This document shows, piece by piece, positions 9,185 to 36,447 of a stretch of DNA of 37,723 nt. Origin of the DNA: an uncultured bacterium (lineage in GTDB: Bacteria; Fermentibacterota; Fermentibacteria; Fermentibacterales; JCC-6). The stretch is taken from assembly GCA_964598645.1 (NCBI GenBank), contig CAZRCS010000002.1, positions 1 to 37,723 on the forward strand, in the 5' to 3' direction. Position 1 is the stretch's first letter. Each line of letters starts with the position of its first letter. The translations under genes and the position numbers were made by a program. The notes beneath the pieces were generated by a model. The model saw only the letters and a list, made by a program, of their open reading frames with translations, searched no databases and was not told the origin of the DNA.

Positions 9185-11059
9185 CTAATTTTTCCCGATG
9201 AGTTCTTCAATGGCTGCAAGAAGACCAGATGATGAGTAGGGTTTCTGAAGAACACTTACCCTGGCTCTGTCTTCAAAGTAACTCATGAGACTGTCACCAC
9301 TGTAACCTGTACAAAACAGGCATGGCAGCCGGGGAGATTGCTGCAGAATATGCTCGAAGGCATCCCTCCCGTTCATTTCAGGCATCATGGCATCGAACAC
9401 TGCAATTTGTATGGAACCGGCATTGGAAGAGTAAATCTCAAGGGCCTCTTTGCCGTTTACAGCCTCCAGAACCCTGTGACCGGCTTTTTCCAGGATGACC
9501 CTTGCGATCTCCCTTACCATGTCTTCGTCCTCGGCAAGAAGAACCGTGAGTTTCCCTGATGACTGGCTGTCCGATATGACCGGGGTCTCTGTTTCCTGAA
9601 TGGAAACCTCACCCAGCCAGAGGGGAATGCATACCCTGAAGCATGAACCTTCTCCCGGAGAGCTTTCCACCTTTATCGTTCCTCCATGTTTCACTGCTAT
9701 GGCATAACTGCTTGCAAGTCCCAAACCGGTGCCCTTGCCCTGTTTCTTGGTAGTAAAGAAGGGTTCGAATATCCTGCTGCGCACATCTTCGGGAATACCG
9801 GGGCCTGTATCACTGACTGATATGCATACACAGCGGACAGGGTCTTTACCTGCTTCACAGACGATCATTTCTTCCGATGTTTCAACAGTTATGCTTCCGC
9901 TCTCCATACCCTCCAGTGCGTCTCTTGCGTTTACGATCAGGTTCATCAGAACCTGTTCCAGCTGGAAGGGATCACCGTTTATTGACAGGCCGGGAGCGCC
10001 TGGTCGGAATTCAAGCTGCATCGAAGCTTCCACTATCCTTCCAACCATTCCGGTGAAGTCTCTTATCCGGCGGTCCACCTGGAATGGTTTCTTGTTGAAA
10101 CTCCCGTGTCGGCTGAAGGAGAGCAGCTGCCTGGTGAGTGACATAGCCTTCTCACCTGCCATCAGGATCTGTGAAAAATATTTCCCCGGGTCCTCCTCCG
10201 AAGAGGAACCGATCTCTGCTGCACCCATCATTACCTGAAGCAGGTTGTTGAAATCGTGGGCCACTCCCCCTGCGAGCCTTCCCACAGCTTCCATCTTCTG
10301 GGCCTGATGAAGCTGCTCTTCAAGTTCATTCTCCCGTGTTACGTCCTCCACGGTTCCCGCAACCAGGGTAGTATCCAGTAGATCATCGTACAGCGGCACC
10401 CTGACTATACTTACAGTCCTTAAACCATTTAGACCTGAAAGGGTGTATGTCCTGGGCTTCCTTCCTGAATCAGCTGACTCCAGAAGCTCTCTGTCATGGG
10501 CTTCCAGCAGTTCCGCTGAAGCAGCTCCAAAGAGATTCCAGTCTCTTCCGTCAACCGCCCTGTCAGCAGTGTATCCGAATATTTCCTCCATTTTCCTGTT
10601 CCATATCCTGTAGGAGAAACCGGAGGATGGATCCTTAGCGAAAAATCCCACTGGAAGACTCTCAACAAGCCCTGCAAGGAAATCCTTTCTCTGTCTGAGC
10701 TGGTCTCGATACTGAATGCTTTCAGTTATGTCAGAACATGTTCCGAGAACGCCTGAGACCCTTCCCTCATCATCGAAAAGGGGAATGGTGTTCAGACTCA
10801 GTATCCTTTTTTTACCCCGTGAGGAAGTAAGGTGTATCTCCCTCTGAAAGAGTGGTCTGCCGGTTTCCAGAACCTGCTTATCGAATTCAGCTGTTCTCCC
10901 CTGAAACAGACCTTTTTCCCGAAGCTCGTCGGCATGATCCAGCCCATGCTCCCGCAGGATTGATCTGTTCGCACCTGAGATCTTCCCGGATGCGTCCTTC
11001 CAGTAGATATAGAATGGAACAGCATCTATTATTTTCCCTGTGATGTCAGCACTATTCAA
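9185..11059 (-). CDS. hybrid sensor histidine kinase / response regulator with PAS domains
   Basis: Two PAS-like regions are followed by the H-box [13 protein letters not shown] boxes ([21 protein letters not shown]) and a C-terminal receiver (LLAEDEDMV ... [10 protein letters not shown]). The TTG start is preceded by GGAG with a 7-nt spacer. Confidence 0.9.
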
Positions 11060-11073
11060 TTTTCAGCTCCGGT

Positions 11074-11367
11074 CTATTCCCTTACGTGCTCCAGGCCTAC
11101 CGATATCAGTGTCTTCACATGGCTGTCAGCAAGGCTGTAGTAAACATGTCTACCCTGCTTCCTCCGCGCAACCAGCCCTCCTGTTCTCAGAACCCGTAGC
11201 TGATGCGATACTGCCGATACAGAAACATCGAGATTGTCTGAAATGCTGCATACGCATAACTCACCCTGAAACAGCATTAACAGGATCTTCAGTCTGGTGG
11301 GATCGGAAGCATTGCTGAAAAGATCCGCCAGACTCTGAATCTCAGTGCAGTTCACATTTTCCATCAC
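11074..11367 (-). CDS. ArsR/SmtB family metalloregulatory transcription factor
   Basis: DPTRLKILLML, ELCVCSI (alpha3 Cys pair) and VSHQLRVLRTGGLV recognition-helix motifs are present. Confidence 0.9.
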   Translation of the reverse strand: MMENVNCTEIQSLADLFSNASDPTRLKILLMLFQGELCVCSISDNLDVSVSAVSHQLRVLRTGGLVARRKQGRHVYYSLADSHVKTLISVGLEHVRE

Positions 11368-22494: not shown

Positions 22495-24321
22495 TCAGGG
22501 AGTTACAACTACCCTCTGGGCAGCCATGCTGTCTTCGGTCTGCATGACGATTGAATAGGTTCCAGCTGGAAGAGCAGGGATCATGGCGGAGTAAACACCC
22601 GAAGCCATCTCACCGTCTGCGATCGAGTGAACTGTTCTTCCCATTCCGTCGTAAACTGCTATACTGACCCTTTCCGGCTGGTCAACTGTGTATCCAATGG
22701 AAAACGCGCCGGAAACAGGGTTCCCCGAGATAAGCCAGACCTTTCTGCCATCAACGGGTGCTGATCCTTCATCCTCAATGCTCACAGGATTCCAGAGCAC
22801 TGTAATGTCCTTCAGAGATGGTGTTGTGTTGGGATTGGAGGTGGCCAGACGAACCTGATACTGAAGGAAGCTGCCGCCCTGGGCTACAACTGTGGAAAGA
22901 TCTCCCGAAGACGTTATCCAGGAACTCCATGAACCCATGCTGCCGGAGTTGTATGATGTCTTGAGCCTGAACGTCACGCTTGTTCCATCAGGAGTTGTAC
23001 TGGCCCAGTAGATGTAGTCCCACTCAACCTTCGTCGGATCTTCCGGTTCGATGTTCAAAATGGAACTGGTAAGAAGACTGGGAGTGGTGAAGCCGCTAAC
23101 CCTCCACCAGCTGACCTTGTCTCCATTGTAGGCACATCCAAGAACGTCCGGTACACCATCGCCGTCCATGTCACCTACAGAAACCCCGAGGGCACCGGAG
23201 AAAAACGAAGAAACCGGGAATGTTTCCCAGGCCTCCCCCATGTACTCTCTGTTCTTGCACCATAGTATTCTGTTCTCGTTGTATGCTGCCAGAGTGAGGT
23301 CGGGATAGCCGTCACCGTCCATATCGTGGGCCGTTATATCGTAGACTCCTGCTGCCGATGCCCCGTTCATCTGGTGAGTGGTCCAGGAACTCTGCGTATC
23401 CAGGTAATCATACCATCTGATGTTTCCGGTGCCTGAAGAAGAGGCAACTGCAAAATCGTCATTACCGTCATTATTGAAGTCGGCTGCGTTAACTGACACC
23501 GGATTGTTGTAATTCGCGTCGATGGTGTACTTAGACCAGGAGTAGCCGTAGGGTGACCGGGAAATGTAAGCACAAATATCGTCGGCACTATTACTGGCTG
23601 CGGCAATGTCAGGATGGCCGTCTCCGTTGAAGTCGCCCACATCGCATGTATATGCCCCGATGAGAGCACCATCAATGTAGTTGATGTTCCATGAAGAGCT
23701 GCCGCCGTTGTTCCTCCACCAGCACACATCTCCTGAATAGCTTGAAACTCCCACCAAGTCCATTAAACCGTCTTGATCTATATCCGCTGCCCTTATCTGT
23801 CTGGCGTCGAATCCCGATGCAATAGTAGTACTCAAGCCCCAACCGCTGGGAGAACAAAGGAAAAGGACGATCTTGTCTTCATTGTCGCTGGATGCTACGA
23901 TGTCCTTGTAACCATTTTCGTCGAAGTCACCTACTGCAATGTATCTTGGAGTGCTGACTGAACCGATCACATGCTTGCTCCAGGCGGTTCCCTGACCATT
24001 GGTGTTCTCCACCCAGAAGATCTCACCGGAAACGTATGCACAACCTGCAGCATCCATGTCTCCGTCAGCATCTATATCCACAGCAATGACGTAGTATGGA
24101 CCGTTGGCGGTAGCTATGGGATTTTCGTCTCTGTCCACTATCAGTTTCAATTGTCCGGGTTCGGTATCCCAATCCATTGCACCTGAAATGTCAAACCTGT
24201 CCTGCCAGTCAGTCACCGGTCCTGTAACACCAGGCCCACCCTGCCAGTCTGTTTGTGTTTCACTAGCCGCCAGCATTGATCCGGCGAAAACAATCAACGC
24301 TATTAATAGCATTAACTTCAT
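22495..24321 (-). CDS. secreted FG-GAP/VCBS-repeat (beta-propeller) protein with T9SS-type C-terminal sorting domain
   Basis: Signal peptide MKLMLLIALIVFAGSMLAA is followed by at least 7 Ca-binding-like repeats (DIDADGDMD, DFDENGYKD, DIDQDGLMD, DFNGDGHPD, DFNNDGNDD, DMDGDGYPD, DMDGDGVPD). The C-terminal roughly 80 aa resemble a Por secretion tail. Confidence 0.85.
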   Translation of the reverse strand: MKLMLLIALIVFAGSMLAASETQTDWQGGPGVTGPVTDWQDRFDISGAMDWDTEPGQLKLIVDRDENPIATANGPYYVIAVDIDADGDMDAAGCAYVSGEIFWVENTNGQGTAWSKHVIGSVSTPRYIAVGDFDENGYKDIVASSDNEDKIVLFLCSPSGWGLSTTIASGFDARQIRAADIDQDGLMDLVGVSSYSGDVCWWRNNGGSSSWNINYIDGALIGAYTCDVGDFNGDGHPDIAAASNSADDICAYISRSPYGYSWSKYTIDANYNNPVSVNAADFNNDGNDDFAVASSSGTGNIRWYDYLDTQSSWTTHQMNGASAAGVYDITAHDMDGDGYPDLTLAAYNENRILWCKNREYMGEAWETFPVSSFFSGALGVSVGDMDGDGVPDVLGCAYNGDKVSWWRVSGFTTPSLLTSSILNIEPEDPTKVEWDYIYWASTTPDGTSVTFRLKTSYNSGSMGSWSSWITSSGDLSTVVAQGGSFLQYQVRLATSNPNTTPSLKDITVLWNPVSIEDEGSAPVDGRKVWLISGNPVSGAFSIGYTVDQPERVSIAVYDGMGRTVHSIADGEMASGVYSAMIPALPAGTYSIVMQTEDSMAAQRVVVTP

Positions 24322-24391
24322 TAAAATCCCCCTTTGTATTTGAAGTACATATATAAATACAGAGTGAGTATCTTTTGCTCTTTGCGGAACG

Positions 24392-24946
24392 TCAATACCC
24401 ATTCTGGGGATAGAGTTCTCCCGGTGACTTGATCTTCAGATAGCGGTCCCGCTCGCTGAAAACACATCCGCAGTAAGGTTGTCTGTATAACCCTGCTTCT
24501 CTGGAAAGTACAATGGATCTTTTATAAAGATCCCGGAAGTCGAAGTGGAGATACTCGACTCCAAAGTTTTCTGCGGCTTCCATAGCAGCTCTTTTGATGA
24601 GTTCCTGGTTCTGATAAGGGCTTACTGTCAATGTTGTCGTAAAACAATCAAAACCACTTCCAGCGGCCTCCGAAGCTGTCATCTTCATTCTGTCCAAAAA
24701 ACAGGAAAGACATCTGTTCTCTGCTTCAAGAAGCAACCTTACGTTATCCTCCAGAGGGTATTCTCTGAAAAAATCCACTGGGAGATTACATTCAGAAGCC
24801 CATGTTTCAAGGGTATTCAGCCTCCTCTGGAACTCCTTCCACGGATGAATTGAAGGATTATAGAAAAAACCTTGAACATCGAAATCATCTTCCCTGAGTT
24901 TTTCCACAACCGCAGTGGCGCATGGCGCGCAGCATATGTGCAACAT
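24392..24946 (-). CDS. queH: epoxyqueuosine reductase QueH (DUF208)
   Basis: MLHICCAPC is at the N-terminus, with a C-terminal PYCGCVFS motif. A TTG at 24961 is an alternative start. Confidence 0.88.
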   Translation of the reverse strand: MLHICCAPCATAVVEKLREDDFDVQGFFYNPSIHPWKEFQRRLNTLETWASECNLPVDFFREYPLEDNVRLLLEAENRCLSCFLDRMKMTASEAAGSGFDCFTTTLTVSPYQNQELIKRAAMEAAENFGVEYLHFDFRDLYKRSIVLSREAGLYRQPYCGCVFSERDRYLKIKSPGELYPQNGY

Positions 24947-24957
24947 TATACGCTTGC

Positions 24958-25977
24958 TCAAAGGGGAAGTACCTCCTGCCCTGCTTTCGTGTATCCCAAA
25001 TGACGATAAGCAAGACCAGTTGCTACCCTTCCCCTGCTGGTTCTGTTCAGAAAACCCGTGGCAAGAAGGAACGGTTCAACCACGTCGATAAGTGTATCTC
25101 TCTCCTCGTTAAGAGTAGCGGCAATTGCAGACACACCAACCGGCCCACCTCCGTAGTGTTTGATTATCACAGATAGGTAATCCCTGTCCAGGCGGTCAAG
25201 ACCCGCTTCGTCAACTCCGTTGATATCCATAGCTTCGATTGCGGTAGCTTCATCTATGGATTCTCTGCGCATTACCTGGGCGTAATCGCGAACCCTTTTC
25301 AGCAGCCTGTTGGCTATTCTGGGTGTTCCCCGGGAACGCATGGCCACGGAATTAGATCCGTCATCGGTTATTCCGGCTTCCAGTATCCCGGCAGACCTGC
25401 GAATTATCGTACAGAGCTCATTGGTATCGTAGAACTCGAGGTGCATGGAAAAACCAAATCTGTCTCTGAGGGGCCCGGTAATGAGTCCTGCTCTGGTGGT
25501 TGCACCGATAATGGTAAAATGACTCAACTCGAGCTTCACTGTTCTGGCATGGGGTCCCGGGTCAATTACCATGTCGATCTGAAAATCTTCCATGGCTGGA
25601 TATATGTATTCCTCCACTATCCTTGGAAGCCTGTGGATCTCGTCTATGAACAGCACATCCCCCCTGGAAAGGTTGGTGAGAATTCCAACCAGATCTGCAG
25701 GTCGTTCCAGGGCGGGACCTGACGTACACACAATTTCAGCATCCATTTCTGCTGCTATTACATGAGCCAGTGTTGTCTTTCCAAGACCCGGGGGACCATG
25801 AAAAAGCAAATGGTCAAGGGGTTCCCCCCTCTCCCGAGCCGCCTGAACGGCAATTTTCAGATTCTTGATCAGTCGCTTCTGACCTATGTATTCAGAAAAA
25901 TCCCTGGGGCGAAGCGAGGTAAACTCCCTCTCCTCTGCCGGATTTTCTCCTCCTCTTACAACAGATTCAAGAGACAT
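24958..25977 (-). CDS. ruvB: Holliday junction branch-migration DNA helicase RuvB
   Basis: SLRPRDFSEYIGQ, Walker A GPPGLGKTT, Walker B LFIDEIHR and sensor GATTRAG motifs are present. Confidence 0.97.
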   Translation of the reverse strand: MSLESVVRGGENPAEEREFTSLRPRDFSEYIGQKRLIKNLKIAVQAARERGEPLDHLLFHGPPGLGKTTLAHVIAAEMDAEIVCTSGPALERPADLVGILTNLSRGDVLFIDEIHRLPRIVEEYIYPAMEDFQIDMVIDPGPHARTVKLELSHFTIIGATTRAGLITGPLRDRFGFSMHLEFYDTNELCTIIRRSAGILEAGITDDGSNSVAMRSRGTPRIANRLLKRVRDYAQVMRRESIDEATAIEAMDINGVDEAGLDRLDRDYLSVIIKHYGGGPVGVSAIAATLNEERDTLIDVVEPFLLATGFLNRTSRGRVATGLAYRHLGYTKAGQEVLPL

Positions 25978-25978
25978 T

Positions 25979-26584
25979 TCACGTCCTCGCCTTCATTGCT
26001 GCGCGTACGATTTCAGAAGGAGAGGCATCCGTGCCCGTTTCTTCCACAGCCTGATTTACCAGCAGAGACGCTTCAGAAGCAGGAATTCCCAGTTGTTCCA
26101 GTATGGCCCTTGCGTCGGCTGCACTGCCCGGTTGAGCAGAGGCTCCAGTGCTGTACTCCAGTTTGCTGAATGAATCCTGGAGTTTGGCAATGATCTGTTT
26201 GGCCCTGGAAGTTCCTATACCCGGCAGTGACTTCAGTACCGGGATGTCACCTGCAGCAATTGCCCCGGCAAGCTCTGCAGGGGGGATTGTCATTGCCTTT
26301 GCAGCAGCTCTTATACCTATACCTGAGACACTGATGAACCTTTGGAAAAACTCTCTGTCTTCAGCTGTTGGGAAAGCAACCGCCAATGGAACACCCCGGT
26401 TCCCCTCGTTAAGGATCTGAAACAACAGATAGAACCTGCGCAGTTCACCGGGAGCCACGCTCCTGGTGAAATAACCCGGGGTCAGAAGGCTGAGGGTAAC
26501 AGGACCAGTTTCAAGGAAAATCTGTAACCCGTCTATTCCCTTCACTAGTCCTTTAACACTCTCAAACACGTTTTTCCTCCTCAT
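25979..26584 (-). CDS. ruvA: Holliday junction DNA-binding protein RuvA
   Basis: HhH motifs VSGIGIRAAAKAM and LPGIGTSRAKQII are present. The start is uncertain (ATG 26584, GTG 26569 or TTG 26611), and every option overlaps the ruvC 3' end. Confidence 0.88.
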   Translation of the reverse strand: MRRKNVFESVKGLVKGIDGLQIFLETGPVTLSLLTPGYFTRSVAPGELRRFYLLFQILNEGNRGVPLAVAFPTAEDREFFQRFISVSGIGIRAAAKAMTIPPAELAGAIAAGDIPVLKSLPGIGTSRAKQIIAKLQDSFSKLEYSTGASAQPGSAADARAILEQLGIPASEASLLVNQAVEETGTDASPSEIVRAAMKART

Positions 26585-27050
26585 AGAGGGCCAGAGCCAC
26601 GGCAAGAGCATCGCTTACATCAACCGGTTTAAGCTCCTCTTTAATTCCAAATATTCTGCGAACCATTCCATTGACCTGTATCTTGCTCGCCCTTCCGTTG
26701 CCGGTTACTGCTTTTTTTACCCTGCTTGCAGGCAGGGATTCCACACGAATGCCCTTCAAACCTGCGGCAAGACACAAAACTCCCCTGGCGTGCCCCATGA
26801 TGATTGCCGTGGCAGGGTGCCTGTAATGGGAGTAAATTTTTTCAAGCCCCATCACCTCGGGGTGGTAGCTTTCTATGACCCTGGCAATACCTTCATACAA
26901 CTCGACAAGCCTGGGAGTAAGAGGATCGGAAGATATTGTCCTGATGGTTCCGGCATCTATCAGCCTGACCTTCCCTCCGGAGGCTGCGATGATTCCATAA
27001 CCGGTAATGTTCAGCCCGGGGTCAACACCAAGTATTATCTTTTCAGGCAA
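26562..27050 (-). CDS. ruvC: crossover junction endodeoxyribonuclease RuvC
   Basis: ILGVDPGLNITGYGII (catalytic Asp) and the C-terminal DALAVAL motif are present. The TTG start directly abuts the yebC stop. Confidence 0.92.
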   Translation of the reverse strand: MPEKIILGVDPGLNITGYGIIAASGGKVRLIDAGTIRTISSDPLTPRLVELYEGIARVIESYHPEVMGLEKIYSHYRHPATAIIMGHARGVLCLAAGLKGIRVESLPASRVKKAVTGNGRASKIQVNGMVRRIFGIKEELKPVDVSDALAVALALYEEEKRV

Positions 27051-27776
27051 CTACTCCGCCATGTCGAAGTTCGAATAAAGAGCCTGAACATCATCGTGCT
27101 CCTCCAGCGATTCAAGAAGTTTCATTGCCTTCTCGGCATCTTTACCCTGAAGAACCACCGTATTTGAGGGAACCTTTGTAACTTCTGCGGAATCCACTTT
27201 GATCCCTGCGTTCTCAAGGGTCTTCTTTACATCGAAAACGTCATCGGGAGCTGATGTAGCAATGATCATATCGTCCTGAACCTGAACATCTTCAAGACCG
27301 GCTTCAAGACCGGCTTCAAGAACCTCATCTTCAGAATGAGAAGCTGCGTCTATGGTTATCTGCCCTTCTCTGCTGAAGAGATAGGCGACACTGTTCTTAG
27401 ATCCCAGACTACCCCCTCCCTTCGTTAGAAGATGCCTTATCTCTGCGGCGGACCGATTCTTGTTATCGGTGAGAACCTCGATGATTATCGCAACACCTCC
27501 GGGACCGTAGGCTTCGTAGACCATCTCTTCGTAGGTTATTCCCTCAAGTTCACCGGTTCCCCTCTTGATCGCTCTTTCGATGTTGTCATTGGGCATGTTC
27601 TGACTTCTGGCGGTGTCTACGGCGACCCTTAGCCTGGGGTTCATCTCGGGATCACCACCGCCCTGTCTCGCCGCCACTGATATCTCCTTGACAAGTCGTG
27701 AGAATATCCTTCCCCTGGCGGCGTCAGCCTTGCCCTTCTTGTGTTTTATTGTACTCCATTTATTGTGTCCGGACAT
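27051..27776 (-). CDS. yebC: YebC/PmpR family DNA-binding transcriptional regulator
   Basis: The MSGHNKWSTIKHKKG N-terminus is diagnostic for the family. AAGGAGA precedes the ATG. Confidence 0.95.
   Translation of the reverse strand: MSGHNKWSTIKHKKGKADAARGRIFSRLVKEISVAARQGGGDPEMNPRLRVAVDTARSQNMPNDNIERAIKRGTGELEGITYEEMVYEAYGPGGVAIIIEVLTDNKNRSAAEIRHLLTKGGGSLGSKNSVAYLFSREGQITIDAASHSEDEVLEAGLEAGLEDVQVQDDMIIATSAPDDVFDVKKTLENAGIKVDSAEVTKVPSNTVVLQGKDAEKAMKLLESLEEHDDVQALYSNFDMAE
27290..27322. repeat. in-frame 12-nt tandem repeat (cttcaagaccgg x2 plus a 9-nt partial copy) inside yebC
   Basis: Read directly from the sequence. On the minus strand it encodes LEAGLEAGLED. Confidence 0.85.
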
Positions 27777-27839: not shown

Positions 27840-28529
27840 TCAAGCTTCCCCCGGGGCAAACTCGATTATCCGATCCCAGTCGTGCGCAGATCTCCTGAAA
27901 AAGCTGACTCCGGTATCTGCTATGTGCACTTTCTCCACCTCCTGGGTGCAAGGCAGAATCACCACGGAACTCCTTACAGCAGAAAGCACAAGATCGATCT
28001 CAGCAAGCCAGTCAGACTTTTCCGCTTCCTGCCCCACGGCAACACAACGCGCAAGGACCTCTGCATCTCCCCGGGAAATCGAGCCCCCACACACCTCCGG
28101 ATACTTCCGGGATTTCTCCAGGATGGAGGGTAGTTGGGAGAGCTTCTCTGAAAGAGTAACGCCTATCCCGGGCAATCCGTTAACTGAAAACGCAGGGAAC
28201 AGAAACTCCCGCCTCTCCGAGATACCTCCGGTTTCCCTGGTTTTACCCTTAAGCACTTCATCATCATACTTACTTTTGAACCTGAGTATGGTGGAAGTGA
28301 ACTCATTTCTCACTGTTCTTTTAAGGACATGCACCGCAGCACTTACCCTCCAGAAAGGCAGGGCAGTCCCTTCTCCGTATCTTGCCCTCTGCTCGATGGA
28401 AATGGATTTCAAACCCGATTCCTCACCGAGCCAGCCGGCTCCGCAGTTGGAGCAGACGAATATAACATCGGTACCAAGCCCCCTGAGAAAGCTACCGCAT
28501 GAACCGCATACAAGCCTGGTTACCCTCAT
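27840..28529 (-). CDS. Zn-ribbon protein C of a three-gene paralogous set (soluble, 229 aa), function unknown
   Basis: N-terminal CGSC-N14-CSNC is followed by an LPFW motif, with no TM segment. The start forms an ATGA overlap with the stop of protein B. Confidence 0.6.
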   Translation of the reverse strand: MRVTRLVCGSCGSFLRGLGTDVIFVCSNCGAGWLGEESGLKSISIEQRARYGEGTALPFWRVSAAVHVLKRTVRNEFTSTILRFKSKYDDEVLKGKTRETGGISERREFLFPAFSVNGLPGIGVTLSEKLSQLPSILEKSRKYPEVCGGSISRGDAEVLARCVAVGQEAEKSDWLAEIDLVLSAVRSSVVILPCTQEVEKVHIADTGVSFFRRSAHDWDRIIEFAPGEA

Positions 28530-29566
28530 ACGTGGCTATCCGTTCCGGCATTCTTCCCTGCCATGTTCAGAAATCTCAGGGAAACAGCTCCCAGCCCCCA
28601 GAGAGAGAGAATGAAAAACATCAGCACAGGCCCCACCGAAAGAAATCCAGAGAAGATAACCAGCAGAATAAGAGGCAGCAGGCCAGCCCATATGCTTCCC
28701 AGTATTCCGGTAACTTTTTTCCAGTGTTCGTAATCTGCGGGGAAAGTTCCCCTGAGAACTTCTCCACTCACCCCGTCTACTACTATTCTGAAGCGTTTAC
28801 TTCCAAGAGAATAGTCAACCGTCCACAGGGGATAATGAATCAACCGCTCTCTGGAACCTGTTACAGCCAGGTACATTGAACGCTGTTCAAGACCGACTCC
28901 CACACCTTCACAGAGCCTTGAAACATACTCTTCGGATTCAAAACGGGCCTGGGCAATGGATACAGCCGGATCCACAACATGAGCTTCCGCAGGAAGATGC
29001 TCCGAGTCGAATACCTTCAGAGGAAGTCTGGAACCAGACCTGCCCAGAGCCATTCCTGACAGGGCCATCTGTGAATTTTTCCCCAGTGAAGGTATCCCCA
29101 GAGGTTCCAGGTTGGCGGCACTGACGATCATGTCAATCTCATTGCTGATCTGGTGCTCTTCTGCCCTGATGCCCTTCCTCTGCTTGATGGTCCTCACAAT
29201 TGATGTCTGCCCGCCACCGCCGTCGTTCTCGGCAAAGGTTTTTATCTGCCTTTCCTTGAACACAGGTTTCACACCGAAAACATAGCCGTCCACCCTGCAT
29301 GAGATAAGCCAGAATGGTACGTATGCCAGGAAGGGCTTACCAACCCTGCACCGGCTGAAAACCCCCCTGGATACTTCTTCAAGCTTCCTTCCAACCGACC
29401 GGATTACCCCGGTGGCACCGGTTTCGGATTCAATAATGTAGCGTTTAACGATGCCTTGAAGCAAAAGCGGCGTATCACAGTGTGAACACCTGGTATTGGT
29501 ATTTCCCTCACTGGTTTTCAAAAGTCCCCCGCATGAGGGACATTGCAGGGTAAGAAGATCACTCAT
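28526..29566 (-). CDS. Zn-ribbon protein B (346 aa, C-terminal 2-TM hairpin), function unknown
   Basis: N-terminal CPSC-N14-CSHC; two W-motif modules (YVPFWLIS and IHYPLWTVDY...VVDGVSGEVLRG); C-terminal helices ILGSIWAGLLPLILLVIFSGF and PVLMFFILSLWGLGAVSL. The ATG at 29566 overlaps the protein A stop by 8 nt, whereas the longer ORF to 29773 would overlap A by more than 200 nt. Confidence 0.6.
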   Translation of the reverse strand: MSDLLTLQCPSCGGLLKTSEGNTNTRCSHCDTPLLLQGIVKRYIIESETGATGVIRSVGRKLEEVSRGVFSRCRVGKPFLAYVPFWLISCRVDGYVFGVKPVFKERQIKTFAENDGGGGQTSIVRTIKQRKGIRAEEHQISNEIDMIVSAANLEPLGIPSLGKNSQMALSGMALGRSGSRLPLKVFDSEHLPAEAHVVDPAVSIAQARFESEEYVSRLCEGVGVGLEQRSMYLAVTGSRERLIHYPLWTVDYSLGSKRFRIVVDGVSGEVLRGTFPADYEHWKKVTGILGSIWAGLLPLILLVIFSGFLSVGPVLMFFILSLWGLGAVSLRFLNMAGKNAGTDSHV

Positions 29567-30203
29567 GGGTTTTCCTGCGTAGTCTGTTCCAGATATCCGG
29601 GGCATATACCGCAGCGGCCATTCCCAGAACAGACGCCCAGAATATGGAAATGTTCCTGAGAAGGAAAAAAACCAGAAGAGCTGGAAGAACTCCAAGGCCG
29701 AATGCCCTGAAGGCCCAGTAAAAAGGATCGAACTTCCTGGAAGACTCCGGAGAGTCACCCAGGATCTTGCCACTCACCGCATCTACTATGGATCCCTGAC
29801 CGGATGAAGAATCTATGAGAACCCAGAATGGATGATAAATGACACCCTGTTCTCCGATCAGGTCGGGGTCTACAGGTATTACTTTACCCTGGGCTGACTG
29901 CTCATCCCATATGCGTCTGTCTGCAGCGGGAGGCACGTATTTCTCCATCTCCGGATATGGCTGGGTAAAAACGGATGAAAGATCTTCAGGATCGTAGGGA
30001 AACCAATAGATAGATGCAGAAGCAACCCCACCAACAGGGAAAAGCCGAATGGCATCCTGCTTCGAAAGAACCGGTCGATGAAGATAGCTTTGACCGGTAA
30101 AACCCGTAATTATGGCCCTTGCTCCGCAGTACGAACAGTTCGCATAGGCATCCGGGGAGGTTACCGCGATGAAAGCTCCGCATTGTGTGCACTTAAGTTT
30201 CAT
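29559..30203 (-). CDS. Zn-ribbon protein A (214 aa, C-terminal 2-TM hairpin), function unknown
   Basis: N-terminal CTQC-N14-CSYC; IYWFPY and IYHPFWVLI...IVDAVSGKILGD motifs; C-terminal helices FGLGVLPALLVFFLL and IFWASVLGMAAAVYA. GGAGGA lies 7 nt upstream of the ATG. Confidence 0.6.
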   Translation of the reverse strand: MKLKCTQCGAFIAVTSPDAYANCSYCGARAIITGFTGQSYLHRPVLSKQDAIRLFPVGGVASASIYWFPYDPEDLSSVFTQPYPEMEKYVPPAADRRIWDEQSAQGKVIPVDPDLIGEQGVIYHPFWVLIDSSSGQGSIVDAVSGKILGDSPESSRKFDPFYWAFRAFGLGVLPALLVFFLLRNISIFWASVLGMAAAVYAPDIWNRLRRKTHE

Positions 30204-30231: not shown

Positions 30232-32409
30232 TTATTCCCCTGCTACTATAACCCTTGAAGTAACCACCCCTGAACCTGTCTCAAGCCTCACGAAGTGAAC
30301 CCCTGAAGGCACCCCTGAGGTGTTCCAGAGAACGTTGTCTGAACCGCTCTCTGAAATGGAGGCAGACAGGTCGGCTATGGTTCTTCCGGACAGATCGAAA
30401 ACCTTCAGTGATGCTCCTGCAAGGTCACAAGGCGTAATGAAAACCGGTATCACTGCTGTGTCAGTCACAGGATTGGGGGTTACAAGACCCAGGGTGGATA
30501 CCGCCGGGGAAACCCCCTGGGAAAAGTCCTCTGCTGAAGACCCGCTGACCATGGCCTGCACAGGCTCTGAAGGCCATCCAGGTCCGAAGGAATCATCCAC
30601 GGCCCATACCCTGAACCAGTGCTCGCCGTCGGCAACTCCGGTAACCGTATGCTGGGAAGATGCGATCTCATCTGCCTGAATACAGTTGGAATCCCATACA
30701 TCCAGTTTGATGTCGTCAATATAGAGTTTGCAGGAGGAGCTGCTTCCGTAACTCTCCCACCGGAACATCAGTGTTTCACCCTGGAACTCGTCCAGTTCAT
30801 GCACGTTGAACCGCCAGGTCATGTCATTCCTGCCGAAGGTCTGCAGGTAGTACCAGTTTGCTCCGGCGTCGGGACTGTATGAGAAAGCTCCCTGACAACT
30901 TTCAGGAGTGATGTTCTGCATTGACCAGAAGCTTATCCTTGCTCCGCCTCCGGCGGGAACCGTTACGGTTTCCTGCCATGTCATGGATCCGGTGCCGTTT
31001 GAAACGTAGCATTGAGGCGAGCTGTGATACTGGGCAGAGGTCATTATCCAGTTGACCCTGTCGAAGGGACCGCTGTCGCCGGAATCATCAAGGAGCACCT
31101 GATAACCGTCGAGTCTCTGAAGGGTGTAGTAGTCTGCGTCGGCAGCGTCGCTCCAGTCCACTGTAAAGGGAGGTGTTACAGAACCTATGGCATCCACAAC
31201 AGGCACACCGGGTTCATGGGGATCGTAGGGGCACCCGGCAAGACACGCCGTTACCAGATAGCTTCTGAGGTTACGGCGGGAAAGCTTGACCACCTCGGTT
31301 GCAGAGGGCCAGAAACCCGCAAAAGACGCACCTGTTTCATGGTTCCAGCTCATGGCACCGTAAAGGGCATATGAGTGGTCTCTGGTGTTTCCCGAAGCAT
31401 AGTAGAACTGTGCTGATGGATAGTGATCCTCTCCGGTTCCCCAGAGAACCATCATATCGCCCTGGGTCTGATACTGGGCAGCGTGGGTAGTCGGATCATC
31501 GGTCCAGCCCCAGGGATAGATCAGAGCATTGGAATAGCAATGGGTGGAGTGCATCTGGTCAGGCTCGTGGGTCTGCCAGAACGTATCGATATTCGATGAC
31601 TCAGGCTCTGAAAGAGGGCCGGTTCCCCTGTAGGTTTCAGAAGAAGGATCACCGCTGGAACCTGAACCGCCCCAGGCCACGGACCAGTTCCTGTTCAGAT
31701 CTATTCCATTTCCTCCGGCGGAGAGATTCCGGTTCTTCCTGTGCATGCCGCCGCCGCCGGGGGATGTGGTTTCGTTATAAACCCAGCCGTCCACATTGTT
31801 GCATGGAAGACACCATATCTCGCGATTCTCAAGGAGCCAGGTAGCCTGGTATCCGCAGTAGCCGTTCCTCTGATAATTACTGCAGAGCCACATCATCCAG
31901 TAGCGGATGTTACGCATTGAAGCGCCTTCACGGGCATGTATGAGGCCGTCGTACCAGGCGTTGGCCATTGAGGGGTCATCGTCGTTGAAGCTGTTGTTGA
32001 CGGATAGTTTGACAACCCTCTGGGGCCGTCCTTCATAGGTATTGCCTATGGACTCCACGGATGTGATGGAAGGATTCGCTGCAACCAGAGAATCGATCCA
32101 GGCATCTATCTCGGCCCATGTGTAGAACCCCCCCATGGAACGGCTGCTGCCGTTCAAGGCCCTGTAATAGCCTTCCATATCAGCTATTCTCGTTTCAGCG
32201 GAAAGCCCGTTCTCCAGAAGCAGAGACCTCTCGTATGATCCTGCAACGAAGTCCACCGAGCCGTCCCTGTAAATCTGAACCACATCGAAACCCAGCCTGG
32301 CGAAAAGCTCCTGCTGGGAATCGGACAAAGGGTTGAAATTCATAAGAGAATAGATCTCCCCTGCAAACACAACCGCAGGTATCACAACCACTAAGAACAG
32401 ATATTTCAA
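30232..32409 (-). CDS. secreted M14 zinc carboxypeptidase with extra beta-rich domains and a T9SS-type C-terminal sorting domain
   Basis: M14 motifs are IHAREGAS (HxxE), DLNRNW and HCYSNALIYPWG. The C-terminal roughly 80 aa (...LKVFDLSGRTIADL...SGVHFVRLETGSG...) look like a Por secretion tail. The TTG start at 32409 lies 6 nt after a perfect GGAGG and is followed by the signal peptide KYLFLVVVIPAVVFA. Confidence 0.88.
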   Translation of the reverse strand: MKYLFLVVVIPAVVFAGEIYSLMNFNPLSDSQQELFARLGFDVVQIYRDGSVDFVAGSYERSLLLENGLSAETRIADMEGYYRALNGSSRSMGGFYTWAEIDAWIDSLVAANPSITSVESIGNTYEGRPQRVVKLSVNNSFNDDDPSMANAWYDGLIHAREGASMRNIRYWMMWLCSNYQRNGYCGYQATWLLENREIWCLPCNNVDGWVYNETTSPGGGGMHRKNRNLSAGGNGIDLNRNWSVAWGGSGSSGDPSSETYRGTGPLSEPESSNIDTFWQTHEPDQMHSTHCYSNALIYPWGWTDDPTTHAAQYQTQGDMMVLWGTGEDHYPSAQFYYASGNTRDHSYALYGAMSWNHETGASFAGFWPSATEVVKLSRRNLRSYLVTACLAGCPYDPHEPGVPVVDAIGSVTPPFTVDWSDAADADYYTLQRLDGYQVLLDDSGDSGPFDRVNWIMTSAQYHSSPQCYVSNGTGSMTWQETVTVPAGGGARISFWSMQNITPESCQGAFSYSPDAGANWYYLQTFGRNDMTWRFNVHELDEFQGETLMFRWESYGSSSSCKLYIDDIKLDVWDSNCIQADEIASSQHTVTGVADGEHWFRVWAVDDSFGPGWPSEPVQAMVSGSSAEDFSQGVSPAVSTLGLVTPNPVTDTAVIPVFITPCDLAGASLKVFDLSGRTIADLSASISESGSDNVLWNTSGVPSGVHFVRLETGSGVVTSRVIVAGE

Positions 32410-32557
32410 TGCATGCCTCCTGAATGAAAAATACGGGGTAATACAGGTTTTATAAATAATAAGCAAAGCAGATGCAATCGGATGAATAGGGCCGGAAGTC
32501 GCTGATTTTTGTATCTTTCCCAGGTAGGAACAAGTTTAAATCAATACGGAGGAAACC

Positions 32558-34695: not shown

Positions 34696-36039
34696 TTATT
34701 GCCAGACAATTATTGCTTCTCTATTCAGAGTATGAAGCTGCAGTAATTGCTGAAGATATCTCCTGTTCTTTTGAGTAACTTCAGGCTCGAATTCATTATA
34801 TGCAAAAAAGGTAACAAGCCCGGGTATTGATTCAAGAATCGGTTCGCTATCATAGACAGGTCCACTCTGTGTTTCTGATAGCTGCCTGACAGCAAGCTTG
34901 ATAGCAATAGGGGTCTCTACTGCGATTTTCCCCTGGCTGTAACCCCACACTGCTGTTGCAGAAAAAATGCATAAGGCAGTTGCTATTTTTAAAATATTTT
35001 TAACTCTGAATTCTCTAAGTAATGCGAATAAATACTCAAAGAGACCAGCAGCAATAAGACAAAGACCAACAGAAGGCAGCCAAAGAAAAGTTTTCTGTAC
35101 CCAGACAAAAGGAAATGGAGCAAGAGAGACAATAGTAATAAAAGCGCCCATTCTGACAGTCTTAGGCAATCTTCCGGAAATTGCAGTAAGCACCAGCAGA
35201 GCAATGCCAACGCTACCAGTCACCAAATTAGCTGGAACGGAACCAGGAATTCCCCAATTAAACAAACAGGCCATTTTAACAAGGTAACCTGTACCGATTT
35301 CAGCAGGAACCACGAGGTTTGATGATATGAGCGGTTTTGTCAACATAAGAATGATAAACAGCCCACCGCCCCCAAGCCATAGAAACCGTCCATCCTTGCA
35401 CACAGAAAGAAAGTCTCTACCCATAGCAATCCAGCACCAGCCAAAAGACAGGGCTAGATATGGTAATGATGTTTCTTTTGCAAAAGAACCCACAGCAGCC
35501 GTTATCAGGGCAAGTATGAGAAAGCGGTTTCTCGCCTTTGAAGAGCTGAAAGCTTTGTCACATAGCATAATCGTAACAAGAACGAAAATACCTATCAGTC
35601 TGTCATTTCTACCTGTAAAGGAAACAAATGAGAATGTCTGGGCGGGGTGGAGCGCCCACAAGGTCAGTGATAGAGCAGCAACAATCAGGCCAAATCTCTT
35701 CCTGAGCAGATATAGCAAAAGACCGAATGTAATCCACGACAGAATAAAATCGGTAAGATGATAAAACCTGTAATCATTGCCATATAGTGTGTAATCAGTG
35801 AGAAATGACATACTGTAAATAGGCCTTGTGAAACCATGCTGGATCGATTCAGTCAATGTCCATTCAACCGTATTCTTACCACTGAATACAAAAGGCATAA
35901 GGAACCGTGCAGTTGTTTCTGAGTCAAAAGGAACACCAAAAACAAACGAGTGTTGAAGAACTGTGATTGCCGGGTATAACAGCATCAGTATCAGCACAAA
36001 ATACTTATGTTGAAAGCGACTCAAGTGACCTGGCTCCAT
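34696..36039 (-). CDS. polytopic membrane protein, GT-C-fold glycosyltransferase-like (GT39/GT83/TMTC-type N-terminal module, no TPR tail)
   Basis: There are more than 10 hydrophobic helices. The first-loop region has an acidic motif (FDSE) followed by RPIYSMSFLTDYTLYGNDYRFYHLTDFIL, which resembles the RP..lSf..dy...G..p..yH motif of PMT/TMTC-like enzymes. The ATG at 36039 is preceded by GGAAGGA. The ORF is open up to 36165. Confidence 0.5.
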   Translation of the reverse strand: MEPGHLSRFQHKYFVLILMLLYPAITVLQHSFVFGVPFDSETTARFLMPFVFSGKNTVEWTLTESIQHGFTRPIYSMSFLTDYTLYGNDYRFYHLTDFILSWITFGLLLYLLRKRFGLIVAALSLTLWALHPAQTFSFVSFTGRNDRLIGIFVLVTIMLCDKAFSSSKARNRFLILALITAAVGSFAKETSLPYLALSFGWCWIAMGRDFLSVCKDGRFLWLGGGGLFIILMLTKPLISSNLVVPAEIGTGYLVKMACLFNWGIPGSVPANLVTGSVGIALLVLTAISGRLPKTVRMGAFITIVSLAPFPFVWVQKTFLWLPSVGLCLIAAGLFEYLFALLREFRVKNILKIATALCIFSATAVWGYSQGKIAVETPIAIKLAVRQLSETQSGPVYDSEPILESIPGLVTFFAYNEFEPEVTQKNRRYLQQLLQLHTLNREAIIVWQ

Positions 36040-36447
36040 CGTTCCTTCCAGTTTCCAGAAGAGTTCCGAGATTGAAAAACACATGCATACATTGCTCTGC
36101 CCTGACCTTTGGTCAAGACGTTCTTCAATTCCGGAACCGGTGATCTGAAGCCGGAAGAGCTGCACGCAAGGGAGCGGAGCGGTTAAACCTTAGTTCGATT
36201 ATCCTTCTGGGTAACTCCTTATTGTAAACACAATATGGAAAATATCAGACCTAGTCTCTTGAGAGCCCAGGGAGCGCCCAGCACGAACAAGATGGACACA
36301 GGTCGTGCTTTCCCACAGCTGGATTCCATTGAATCTCCCGCTTTTCTGCATTGACTCAGTACGTGAGATATCGGTGACATCTCATGATCCCAGTAGGTAC
36401 TCAGTTAGCATACTTGGAGTTTATTTACCGCTGGTAGCTTGAATTTC

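Follow-up and report, generated by a model that had tools for sequence, protein, structure and literature searches.

A three-gene cassette of zinc-ribbon paralogs in an uncultured Fermentibacterota bacterium and its probable kinship with Bacillus YdjG/SamG

Three consecutive genes in the genome of an uncultured Fermentibacterota bacterium encode proteins that each begin with a zinc ribbon, and they raise the question of whether a single module has been duplicated and diverged within one locus, and what such a set of proteins might do at the cell membrane. The genes, here called A, B and C, lie on the minus strand of contig CAZRCS010000002.1 (assembly GCA_964598645.1); we refer to the whole 37,723-nt stretch analyzed as the window, and all features described below are on its minus strand. 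Gene A (29559–30203) is an open reading frame (ORF) for a short protein of 214 amino acids with a predicted membrane anchor, gene B (28526–29566, placed from its ORF together with the junction sequence) encodes a long, likewise anchored paralog of 346 amino acids, and gene C (27840–28529, from its ORF) encodes a soluble paralog of 229 amino acids with no transmembrane (TM) segment. The start of B is an internal ATG at 29566 of a longer ORF, giving an 8-nt overlap with the end of A, and the ATG of C overlaps the stop codon of B by 4 nt; with stop and start codons overlapping in this way, A-B-C is a translationally coupled cassette. As set out below, the three proteins are very probably diverged paralogs of the YdjG/SamG family known from Bacillus subtilis.

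Each of A, B and C has a CxxC-x14-CxxC zinc ribbon at its N-terminus and carries both an aromatic-x-P-[FL]-W and a VDGxSGxVL strand. A sequence-only reading of this DNA had proposed this architecture, and every motif that it quoted was found in place. Of the 351 ORF fragments that the window yields in six frames (38,670 residues in total), only those of these three proteins contain the patterns [YHFW]xP[FL]W, VD[AG]VSG and CxxC-x10-20-CxxC. Conservation among homologues, a check named beforehand, gave the same answer: the motif residues are invariant or nearly so among 39 (A), 44 (B) and 46 (C) homologues and form conserved columns in 69 distant relatives at 18–42% identity, with a family consensus of CPxCGGxL...C.YC, LhYhPFW, LhYYPLWhhRY and VDGxxGxVLxGxAPG followed by a hydrophobic tail.

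For protein A, all four cysteines (C5, C8, C23 and C26) of the zinc ribbon CTQC-x14-CSYC (residues 5–26, 30126–30191) are invariant, as are F68 and P69 of the first W-motif, IYWFPY (residues 65–70, 29994–30011), in which W67 is nearly so; H124 and P125 are invariant in the second W-motif, IYHPFWVLI (residues 122–130, 29814–29840), and D141, V143 and S144, with G145 close behind, in the strand IVDAVSGKILGD (residues 139–150, 29754–29789). The zinc ribbon of B, CPSC-x14-CSHC (residues 9–30, 29477–29542), has cysteines that are invariant or nearly so among close homologues and invariant in the 69 distant relatives. Further along B, L80, V83, P84, F85 and W86 are invariant in and around AYVPFWLIS (residues 81–89, 29300–29326), as is the run from L153 to P159 in the linear motif NLEPLGIPSLG (residues 152–162, 29081–29113), whose counterpart in Chloroflexota relatives is ACDxxEFGV; Y245 to W248 are conserved in IHYPLWTVDY (residues 243–252, 28811–28840), and D264 and G265 in the strand IVVDGVSGEVLRG (residues 261–273, 28748–28786). 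Protein C has four invariant cysteines in its ribbon (residues 8–29, 28443–28508) and conserved F59 and W60 in its LPFW element (residues 57–60, 28350–28361).

BLASTP of A against B returned two collinear segments, one over the zinc ribbon (E = 5e-5) and one from the W-strand to the first TM helix (E = 3e-3), and aligned IVDAVSGKILGD of A with VVDGVSGEVLRG of B. Using profiles of the close families, hhalign matched A and B over their full length (86%, E = 5e-6), pairing YWFPY with YVPFW and YHPFW with HYPLW. The first W-motif of A had earlier been called a degenerate copy, a description that its invariant residues and its alignment with the B strand do not bear out. With diverse profiles, in which relatives from other phyla were included, the match between A and B rose to 99.9% (E = 7e-33, 265 columns), and C matched both B (97.4%, E = 1.3e-11, 206 columns) and A (95.2%). 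The alignment of C with B continues through the C-terminal helix and sheet of C, where '...VVILPC...KVHIADTGVSFF' pairs with '...LIHYPLW...IVVDGVSGEVL' of B; C is thus a complete soluble copy and not a remnant, and the 206 aligned columns, which include the second module, contradict the suggestion that it had kept the LPFW element alone. Inside B, module 1 (residues ~43–105) aligns with module 2 (residues ~196–266) at E = 1.7e-5 and a probability of 78%, a sequence match that supports an internal duplication of a helix-plus-W-hairpin module. In each of the three proteins the zinc ribbon is followed by two copies of a helix-plus-β module; the aromatic-x-P-[FL]-W strand belongs to the first copy, and in the second a further x-P-[FL]-W strand precedes VDGxSGxVL. 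Between them, the full-length paralogy and the match within B sustain the original idea of duplication and divergence of one module.

The AlphaFold2 model of B (predicted local distance difference test score, pLDDT, 74; predicted template modeling score, pTM, 0.62) places ribbon β-strands at residues 5–44 and a helix at 51–65, followed by a long β-hairpin (residues 79–149, 29120–29332; strands 79–112 and 121–149) that starts with AYVPFWLIS and has at its tip a GGGG turn (residues 116–119, 29210–29221) that is not conserved. Short helices follow, then a helix at 204–220, strands at 230–254, 257–264 and 270–275, and two long C-terminal helices at 279–305 and 312–340. Module 2 (residues 196–275, 28742–28981) thereby contains a VVDP sequence, the helix 204–220 and a β-meander with IHYPLWTVDY and IVVDGVSGEVLRG. 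The order of secondary-structure elements in this model would fit the W-strand and VDG strands lying in one sheet. The model of C (pLDDT 84.7, pTM 0.82) has its elements in the same order as B, ends in a C-terminal helix plus sheet (residues 153–211, 27897–28073) and contains no TM helices.

B had been described as carrying a single insert of roughly 150 residues; it is indeed longer than A, by ~130 residues, but these are spread over at least three places, namely the distal β-hairpin, residues ~164–182 and the helix before module 2. The largest difference is the far end of the ~30-residue β-hairpin with its Gly-rich turn; with 31% of its residues charged, this distal part does not qualify as a membrane stem. 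The helix that precedes module 2 is gone from Fermentibacteria A and retained in A-like proteins of other phyla. β-Pore-forming toxins and other ring-forming long-hairpin proteins headed the Foldseek results for B; we rejected them as relatives, having found neither significant similarity nor an amphipathic, membrane-spanning hairpin.

Hydropathy places a C-terminal TM hairpin in A (residues 164–182 and 185–202, 29598–29714; Kyte-Doolittle peaks 2.1–2.2) and in B (residues 289–308 and 311–333, 28568–28702; peak 2.47), no hydrophobic segment in C, and no N-terminal hydrophobic segment or signal peptide in A, B or C. Across 39 A and 44 B sequences, the loop between the two helices is 3 (A) or ~4 (B) residues long and almost uncharged, and Lys and Arg are enriched before the first helix (means of 1.5 in A and 3.0 in B) and after the second (3.3 and 2.4). 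This is the pattern of a hairpin with both termini inside, which predicts a cytoplasmic soluble part; A and B would then have their zinc ribbons and modules at the inner face of the membrane. The proposed C-terminal tether with a cytoplasmic soluble part agrees with these features and also with the action of YdjG together with the cytoplasmic proteins YdjI and PspA (PMC8581546).

For comparison with a characterized organism, we recovered the ydj locus of Bacillus via a published primer (PMC8581546). YdjG (341 amino acids) has two zinc ribbons, a helix, the strand MYIPFWMF, a long β region, 'LLPVWMVSYDY...MNGQTGKVVGKPP' and one TM helix. It scored 71 bits (E = 4e-24) against a hidden Markov model (HMM) of the diverse B family, 24 bits (E = 7e-10) against one of Fermentibacteria B sequences only, and 18.7 bits against the A HMM; hhalign matched it to the B profile at 99.1% (E = 1.1e-18, 261 columns), and module 2 of B matches YdjG residues 261–337. 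Like B, it has an N-terminal CxxC zinc ribbon, a helix, a YIPFW strand, a long β region and a C-terminal membrane anchor, and its core, like that of A, B and C, has no Pfam model. Viewed from the side of the family, A, B and C each have the N-terminal four-cysteine ribbon, one apiece against two in YdjG, and the B profile is homologous to YdjG over the whole length of the core, including the x-P-F-W and DGxTGxVxGxxP strands; A and B also have the C-terminal anchor, by predicted topology a hairpin in place of a single TM helix, and C is without it. Hence our assignment of all three to the YdjG/SamG family, which we regard as very likely. The family and its Bacillus member are already known and barely characterized. 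In B. subtilis, YdjG and YdjH are needed for the membrane foci of the SPFH protein YdjI and of the ESCRT-III homologue PspA, and YdjG and YdjH interact with each other in two-hybrid assays (PMC8581546; bioRxiv 10.64898/2026.02.06.704340); YdjG, YdjH and YdjI have since been renamed SamG, SamH and SamI in the second of these works.

The family is large and widespread. The B profile retrieved 1,451 representative clusters (50% identity) at E ≤ 1e-3 and 226 at E ≤ 1e-10. Close homologues (39 for A, 47 for B) occur exclusively in Ca. Fermentibacteria and Ca. Sabulitectum, where the genes are always neighbors and never carry a protein name. In the 89 loci analyzed first, mostly from Chloroflexota with Fermentibacterota and unclassified metagenome lineages, a C-like gene lies directly downstream of the B-like gene in 86 and an A-like gene upstream in 79. 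The order A-B-C was present in every group sampled, including Chloroflexota (80 loci), Acidobacteriota (14 loci), Krumholzibacteriota, 'Deltaproteobacteria' metagenome-assembled genomes and several unclassified lineages, as well as on metagenome contigs, and is conserved across at least five phyla; the genes that flank the trio vary by phylum. Pfam holds no model for the core domain, searches of Pfam and NCBIfam with A, B and C gave sub-threshold zinc-ribbon matches alone, and the B and C profiles retrieved from the PDB only zinc-ribbon look-alikes (ribosomal eS27 and Rpb12 among them). Long relatives yielded no informative domain fusions; one candidate of 558 amino acids, with an N-terminal protein kinase and AAA_16 fragments, was set aside since it looks like a chimeric gene call.

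What, then, might the trio do? Taken as a whole, the explanation we favor, with somewhat better than even confidence, is that this YdjG/SamG-family trio forms a cytoplasmic-face, sub-membrane platform for membrane-maintenance proteins. The hairpins of A and B would insert from the cytoplasmic side, and A, B and soluble C probably assemble into a hetero-oligomeric platform that, by analogy with B. subtilis YdjG/SamG, might recruit or regulate cytoplasmic proteins of membrane maintenance. The likeliest partner would be an SPFH protein of the YdjI type that carries zinc ribbons at its C-terminus and whose gene would lie elsewhere in the genome; the resulting complex would help to sense envelope stress or to maintain membrane homeostasis. 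For the zinc ribbons, protein-protein contacts are a likelier role than DNA binding. The function as an anchor or regulator of SPFH/PspA-type proteins is put forward tentatively, with confidence a little short of even, and is drawn by analogy because the window has no SPFH, PspA or TPM gene. A comparable role is played by E. coli PspB/PspC and the NfeD partners of SPFH proteins, small integral membrane proteins by which a soluble protein of membrane maintenance is kept at the inner side of the membrane (PMC8581546; 10.64898/2026.02.06.704340); these have no zinc ribbons or PFW/VDG modules and no detected sequence relationship to the trio, so the analogy is one of role and not of family. In more general terms, the trio is best read as a scaffold or sensor at the cytoplasmic face of the membrane, probably a scaffold and one that has received little study.

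Gene neighborhoods offer some support for an SPFH partner. In eight loci, spread over at least four lineages, the trio has beside it a Band_7_1 SPFH protein that carries double zinc ribbons at its C-terminus, the architecture of B. subtilis YdjI; its gene precedes A in six of these loci and follows C in one, and no other neighbor recurs across lineages. Beside this SPFH gene, in two unrelated loci, we also observed a charged, probably coiled-coil protein of 168–171 amino acids with no Pfam match (locus L088, 7720–8235; locus L107, 1451–1957), which may be a further partner, possibly a small PspA/ESCRT-III-like protein. Locus L088 additionally encodes a DUF2207 membrane protein after the SPFH gene (9367–11136) and a LiaI-LiaF-like TM protein at the contig edge, which hint at an envelope-stress neighborhood.

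Several observations count against the platform explanation. The Bacillus operon context of pspA, ydjH (TPM) and ydjI (SPFH) is missing in its entirety from the window, PspA and TPM genes were not found near the trio in related loci either at phmmer sensitivity, and not one of the 80 Chloroflexota or 14 Acidobacteriota loci has the SPFH gene next to the trio, so that the functional link depends on a minority of lineages and one model organism. YdjG itself is built differently, with a second zinc ribbon and a single TM helix, and it lacks paralogous partners: Bacillus combines one YdjG with the unrelated TPM-domain protein YdjH, whereas the present locus has three paralogs, one of them soluble. 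The structure model of B, moreover, is of moderate confidence only.

A bolder version of the platform explanation is speculative, and we consider it unlikely: the trio would be an ancient, self-contained hetero-oligomeric machine of the inner face, arranged as a ring or lattice in which the ~30-residue β-hairpins of B form a cytoplasmic β-collar, and would act in many uncultured phyla as a general SPFH/ESCRT-III docking site or regulator, with the single-copy YdjG/SamG of Firmicutes as a reduced derivative. Were it true, bacterial membrane homeostasis would gain a new and widespread component, founded on a domain that has yet to be classified.

Among the alternatives, the one that survives best, though distinctly improbable, makes the trio a membrane-bound signaling or sequestration device in which the ribbons bind a transcription factor or nucleic acid at the membrane, much as an anti-sigma factor would, and C is a released or competing partner. 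SamG/SamH have been read as a stress-signaling unit restrained by SamI (10.64898/2026.02.06.704340), and the TFIIB-type ribbon of YdjG could be regulatory (PMC9239133); the first ribbon of YdjG matches Zn_Ribbon_TF at E = 1.8e-12, and a decoy or release model fits a soluble paralog in which nothing but the anchor is missing. The ribbons of A, B and C, however, stay below every Pfam threshold, including that of the TFIIB type, no regulator gene is conserved beside the trio across phyla, and there is no evidence for proteolytic release sites.

The genes downstream of C suggest a different association. On the same strand, yebC, ruvC, ruvA, ruvB and queH occupy 24392–27776, and within Fermentibacteria they always lie 3′ of the trio, in a synteny (A-B-C-yebC-ruvCAB-queH) retained in relatives with B identities down to 39–49% (loci L001–L004). 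Our promoter and terminator scan, in which counts did not exceed the shuffled expectation, gave no convincing terminator between C and yebC and a candidate promoter ahead of yebC at 27843–27815. The trio could accordingly be imagined as a partner of DNA recombination and repair, for instance as the membrane tether of YebC or RuvABC, and exonuclease VII genes do follow one distant locus. We judge this very unlikely: outside Fermentibacteria the flanks are unrelated (SIR2, a penicillin-binding transpeptidase, an ABC ATPase and PLD), so the yebC-ruv linkage looks like phylum-level synteny, and the experimentally studied homologue YdjG acts in membrane biology.

In Anaerolineae, the neighborhood is of another kind. 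A PLD-family protein with two HKD motifs comes right after C in 38 of 80 loci and a HerA/AAA_10-like ATPase of ~850 amino acids next in 23 (at locus L005, 7585–8685 and 8765–11341, respectively), and the two match the DrmC and HerA/mad8 models of PADLOC. On this evidence the trio could be one part of a conflict or anti-phage system in which a nuclease of the PLD family and a HerA-like ATPase also act, but there is little probability in that: neither A, B, C nor their Chloroflexota counterparts match PADLOC-DB 2.0 at E ≤ 0.01, no other phylum sampled has the PLD and HerA genes, and the trio sits among housekeeping genes at a chromosomal position that is stable phylum-wide, unlike a mobile defense island. 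The PLD and HerA genes may instead be a separate defense-like pair or a lineage-specific extension of the operon; this context and that of yebC-ruvCAB-queH are both lineage-specific.

The last alternative concerns the VD-strand, which had been noted as loosely reminiscent of PepSY, an impression that was repeated in the profile searches at sub-threshold level. PepSY is the only Pfam family matched repeatedly by module 2 (7 of 33 isolated sequences, best E = 0.025), and one of the 69 distant relatives, compared as a full-length sequence, matched it at E = 0.004; the gathering score of PF03413 was never reached, and A, B and C themselves gave no match to it even at E ≤ 1. Foldseek found no PepSY structure, and the module 2 profile retrieved from the PDB non-significant look-alikes, mainly transglutaminase 2 (E ≥ 0.57), with no PepSY-containing structure among them. 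Neither the long hairpin nor an invariant x-P-[FL]-W strand is known as a PepSY feature. By its predicted secondary structure, module 2 would share with the PepSY domain (of YpeB and the M4 peptidase propeptides) a helix and a small antiparallel sheet ending in a '...VDxxTGxVL' strand; PepSY domains are typically extracytoplasmic, where the modules here are predicted to be cytoplasmic. The recurrent weak matches agree with a description of the YdjG core as 'related to YpeB' (PMC11237479).

Upstream of A by 28 bp, on the same strand, is a gene for an M14 zinc carboxypeptidase of 744 amino acids (30232–32466) with a C-terminal Por_Secre_tail, a type IX secretion system (T9SS) sorting domain. Sparse metatranscriptome contigs match B, C and the junction between the M14 gene and A, which is spanned by a contig covering 30155–30406, and the two genes may be co-transcribed. 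It is nevertheless extremely unlikely that the modules are true extracytoplasmic PepSY domains regulating a secreted peptidase such as this one, despite the weak PepSY matches and the shared junction transcript, given that there is no signal peptide, that the positive-inside pattern and the zinc ribbon at the N-terminus put the modules on the cytoplasmic side, that PepSY stays below the Pfam threshold, and that the M14 gene is not next to the trio in other phyla or in other Fermentibacteria, in which glycosyltransferases lie between the two or take its place. None of these four alternatives has cross-phylum support.

In the PspA-SPFH membrane-stress module of Bacillus, YdjG/SamG is among the components about which least is understood, and the locus broadens what can be compared. 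The common form in at least five phyla is a set of two anchored paralogs and one soluble paralog, sometimes joined to a YdjI-like SPFH gene; in the literature searched, we found no description of this three-paralog cassette, its breadth, its soluble member or the internal duplication. The core domain defines a large family of 1,451 clusters, and a new domain family definition would be justified. The comparison also provides a framework with conserved residues for mutation, namely the zinc cysteines, the Pro-Phe/Leu-Trp strand, LEPLGIPSLG and the VDG strand, and a testable idea, that the receptors of SPFH proteins and PspA are multi-subunit assemblies in most lineages.

Elsewhere in the window, an ORF of 489 amino acids at 34696–36165 matched no Pfam family at E ≤ 1e-5. 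Downstream of queH, a protein of 635 amino acids with FG-GAP/VCBS repeats is encoded at 22495–24402, and its counterpart in related contigs shows a faint T9SS tail signal. The source DNA of the window was detected in marine-sediment metagenomes.

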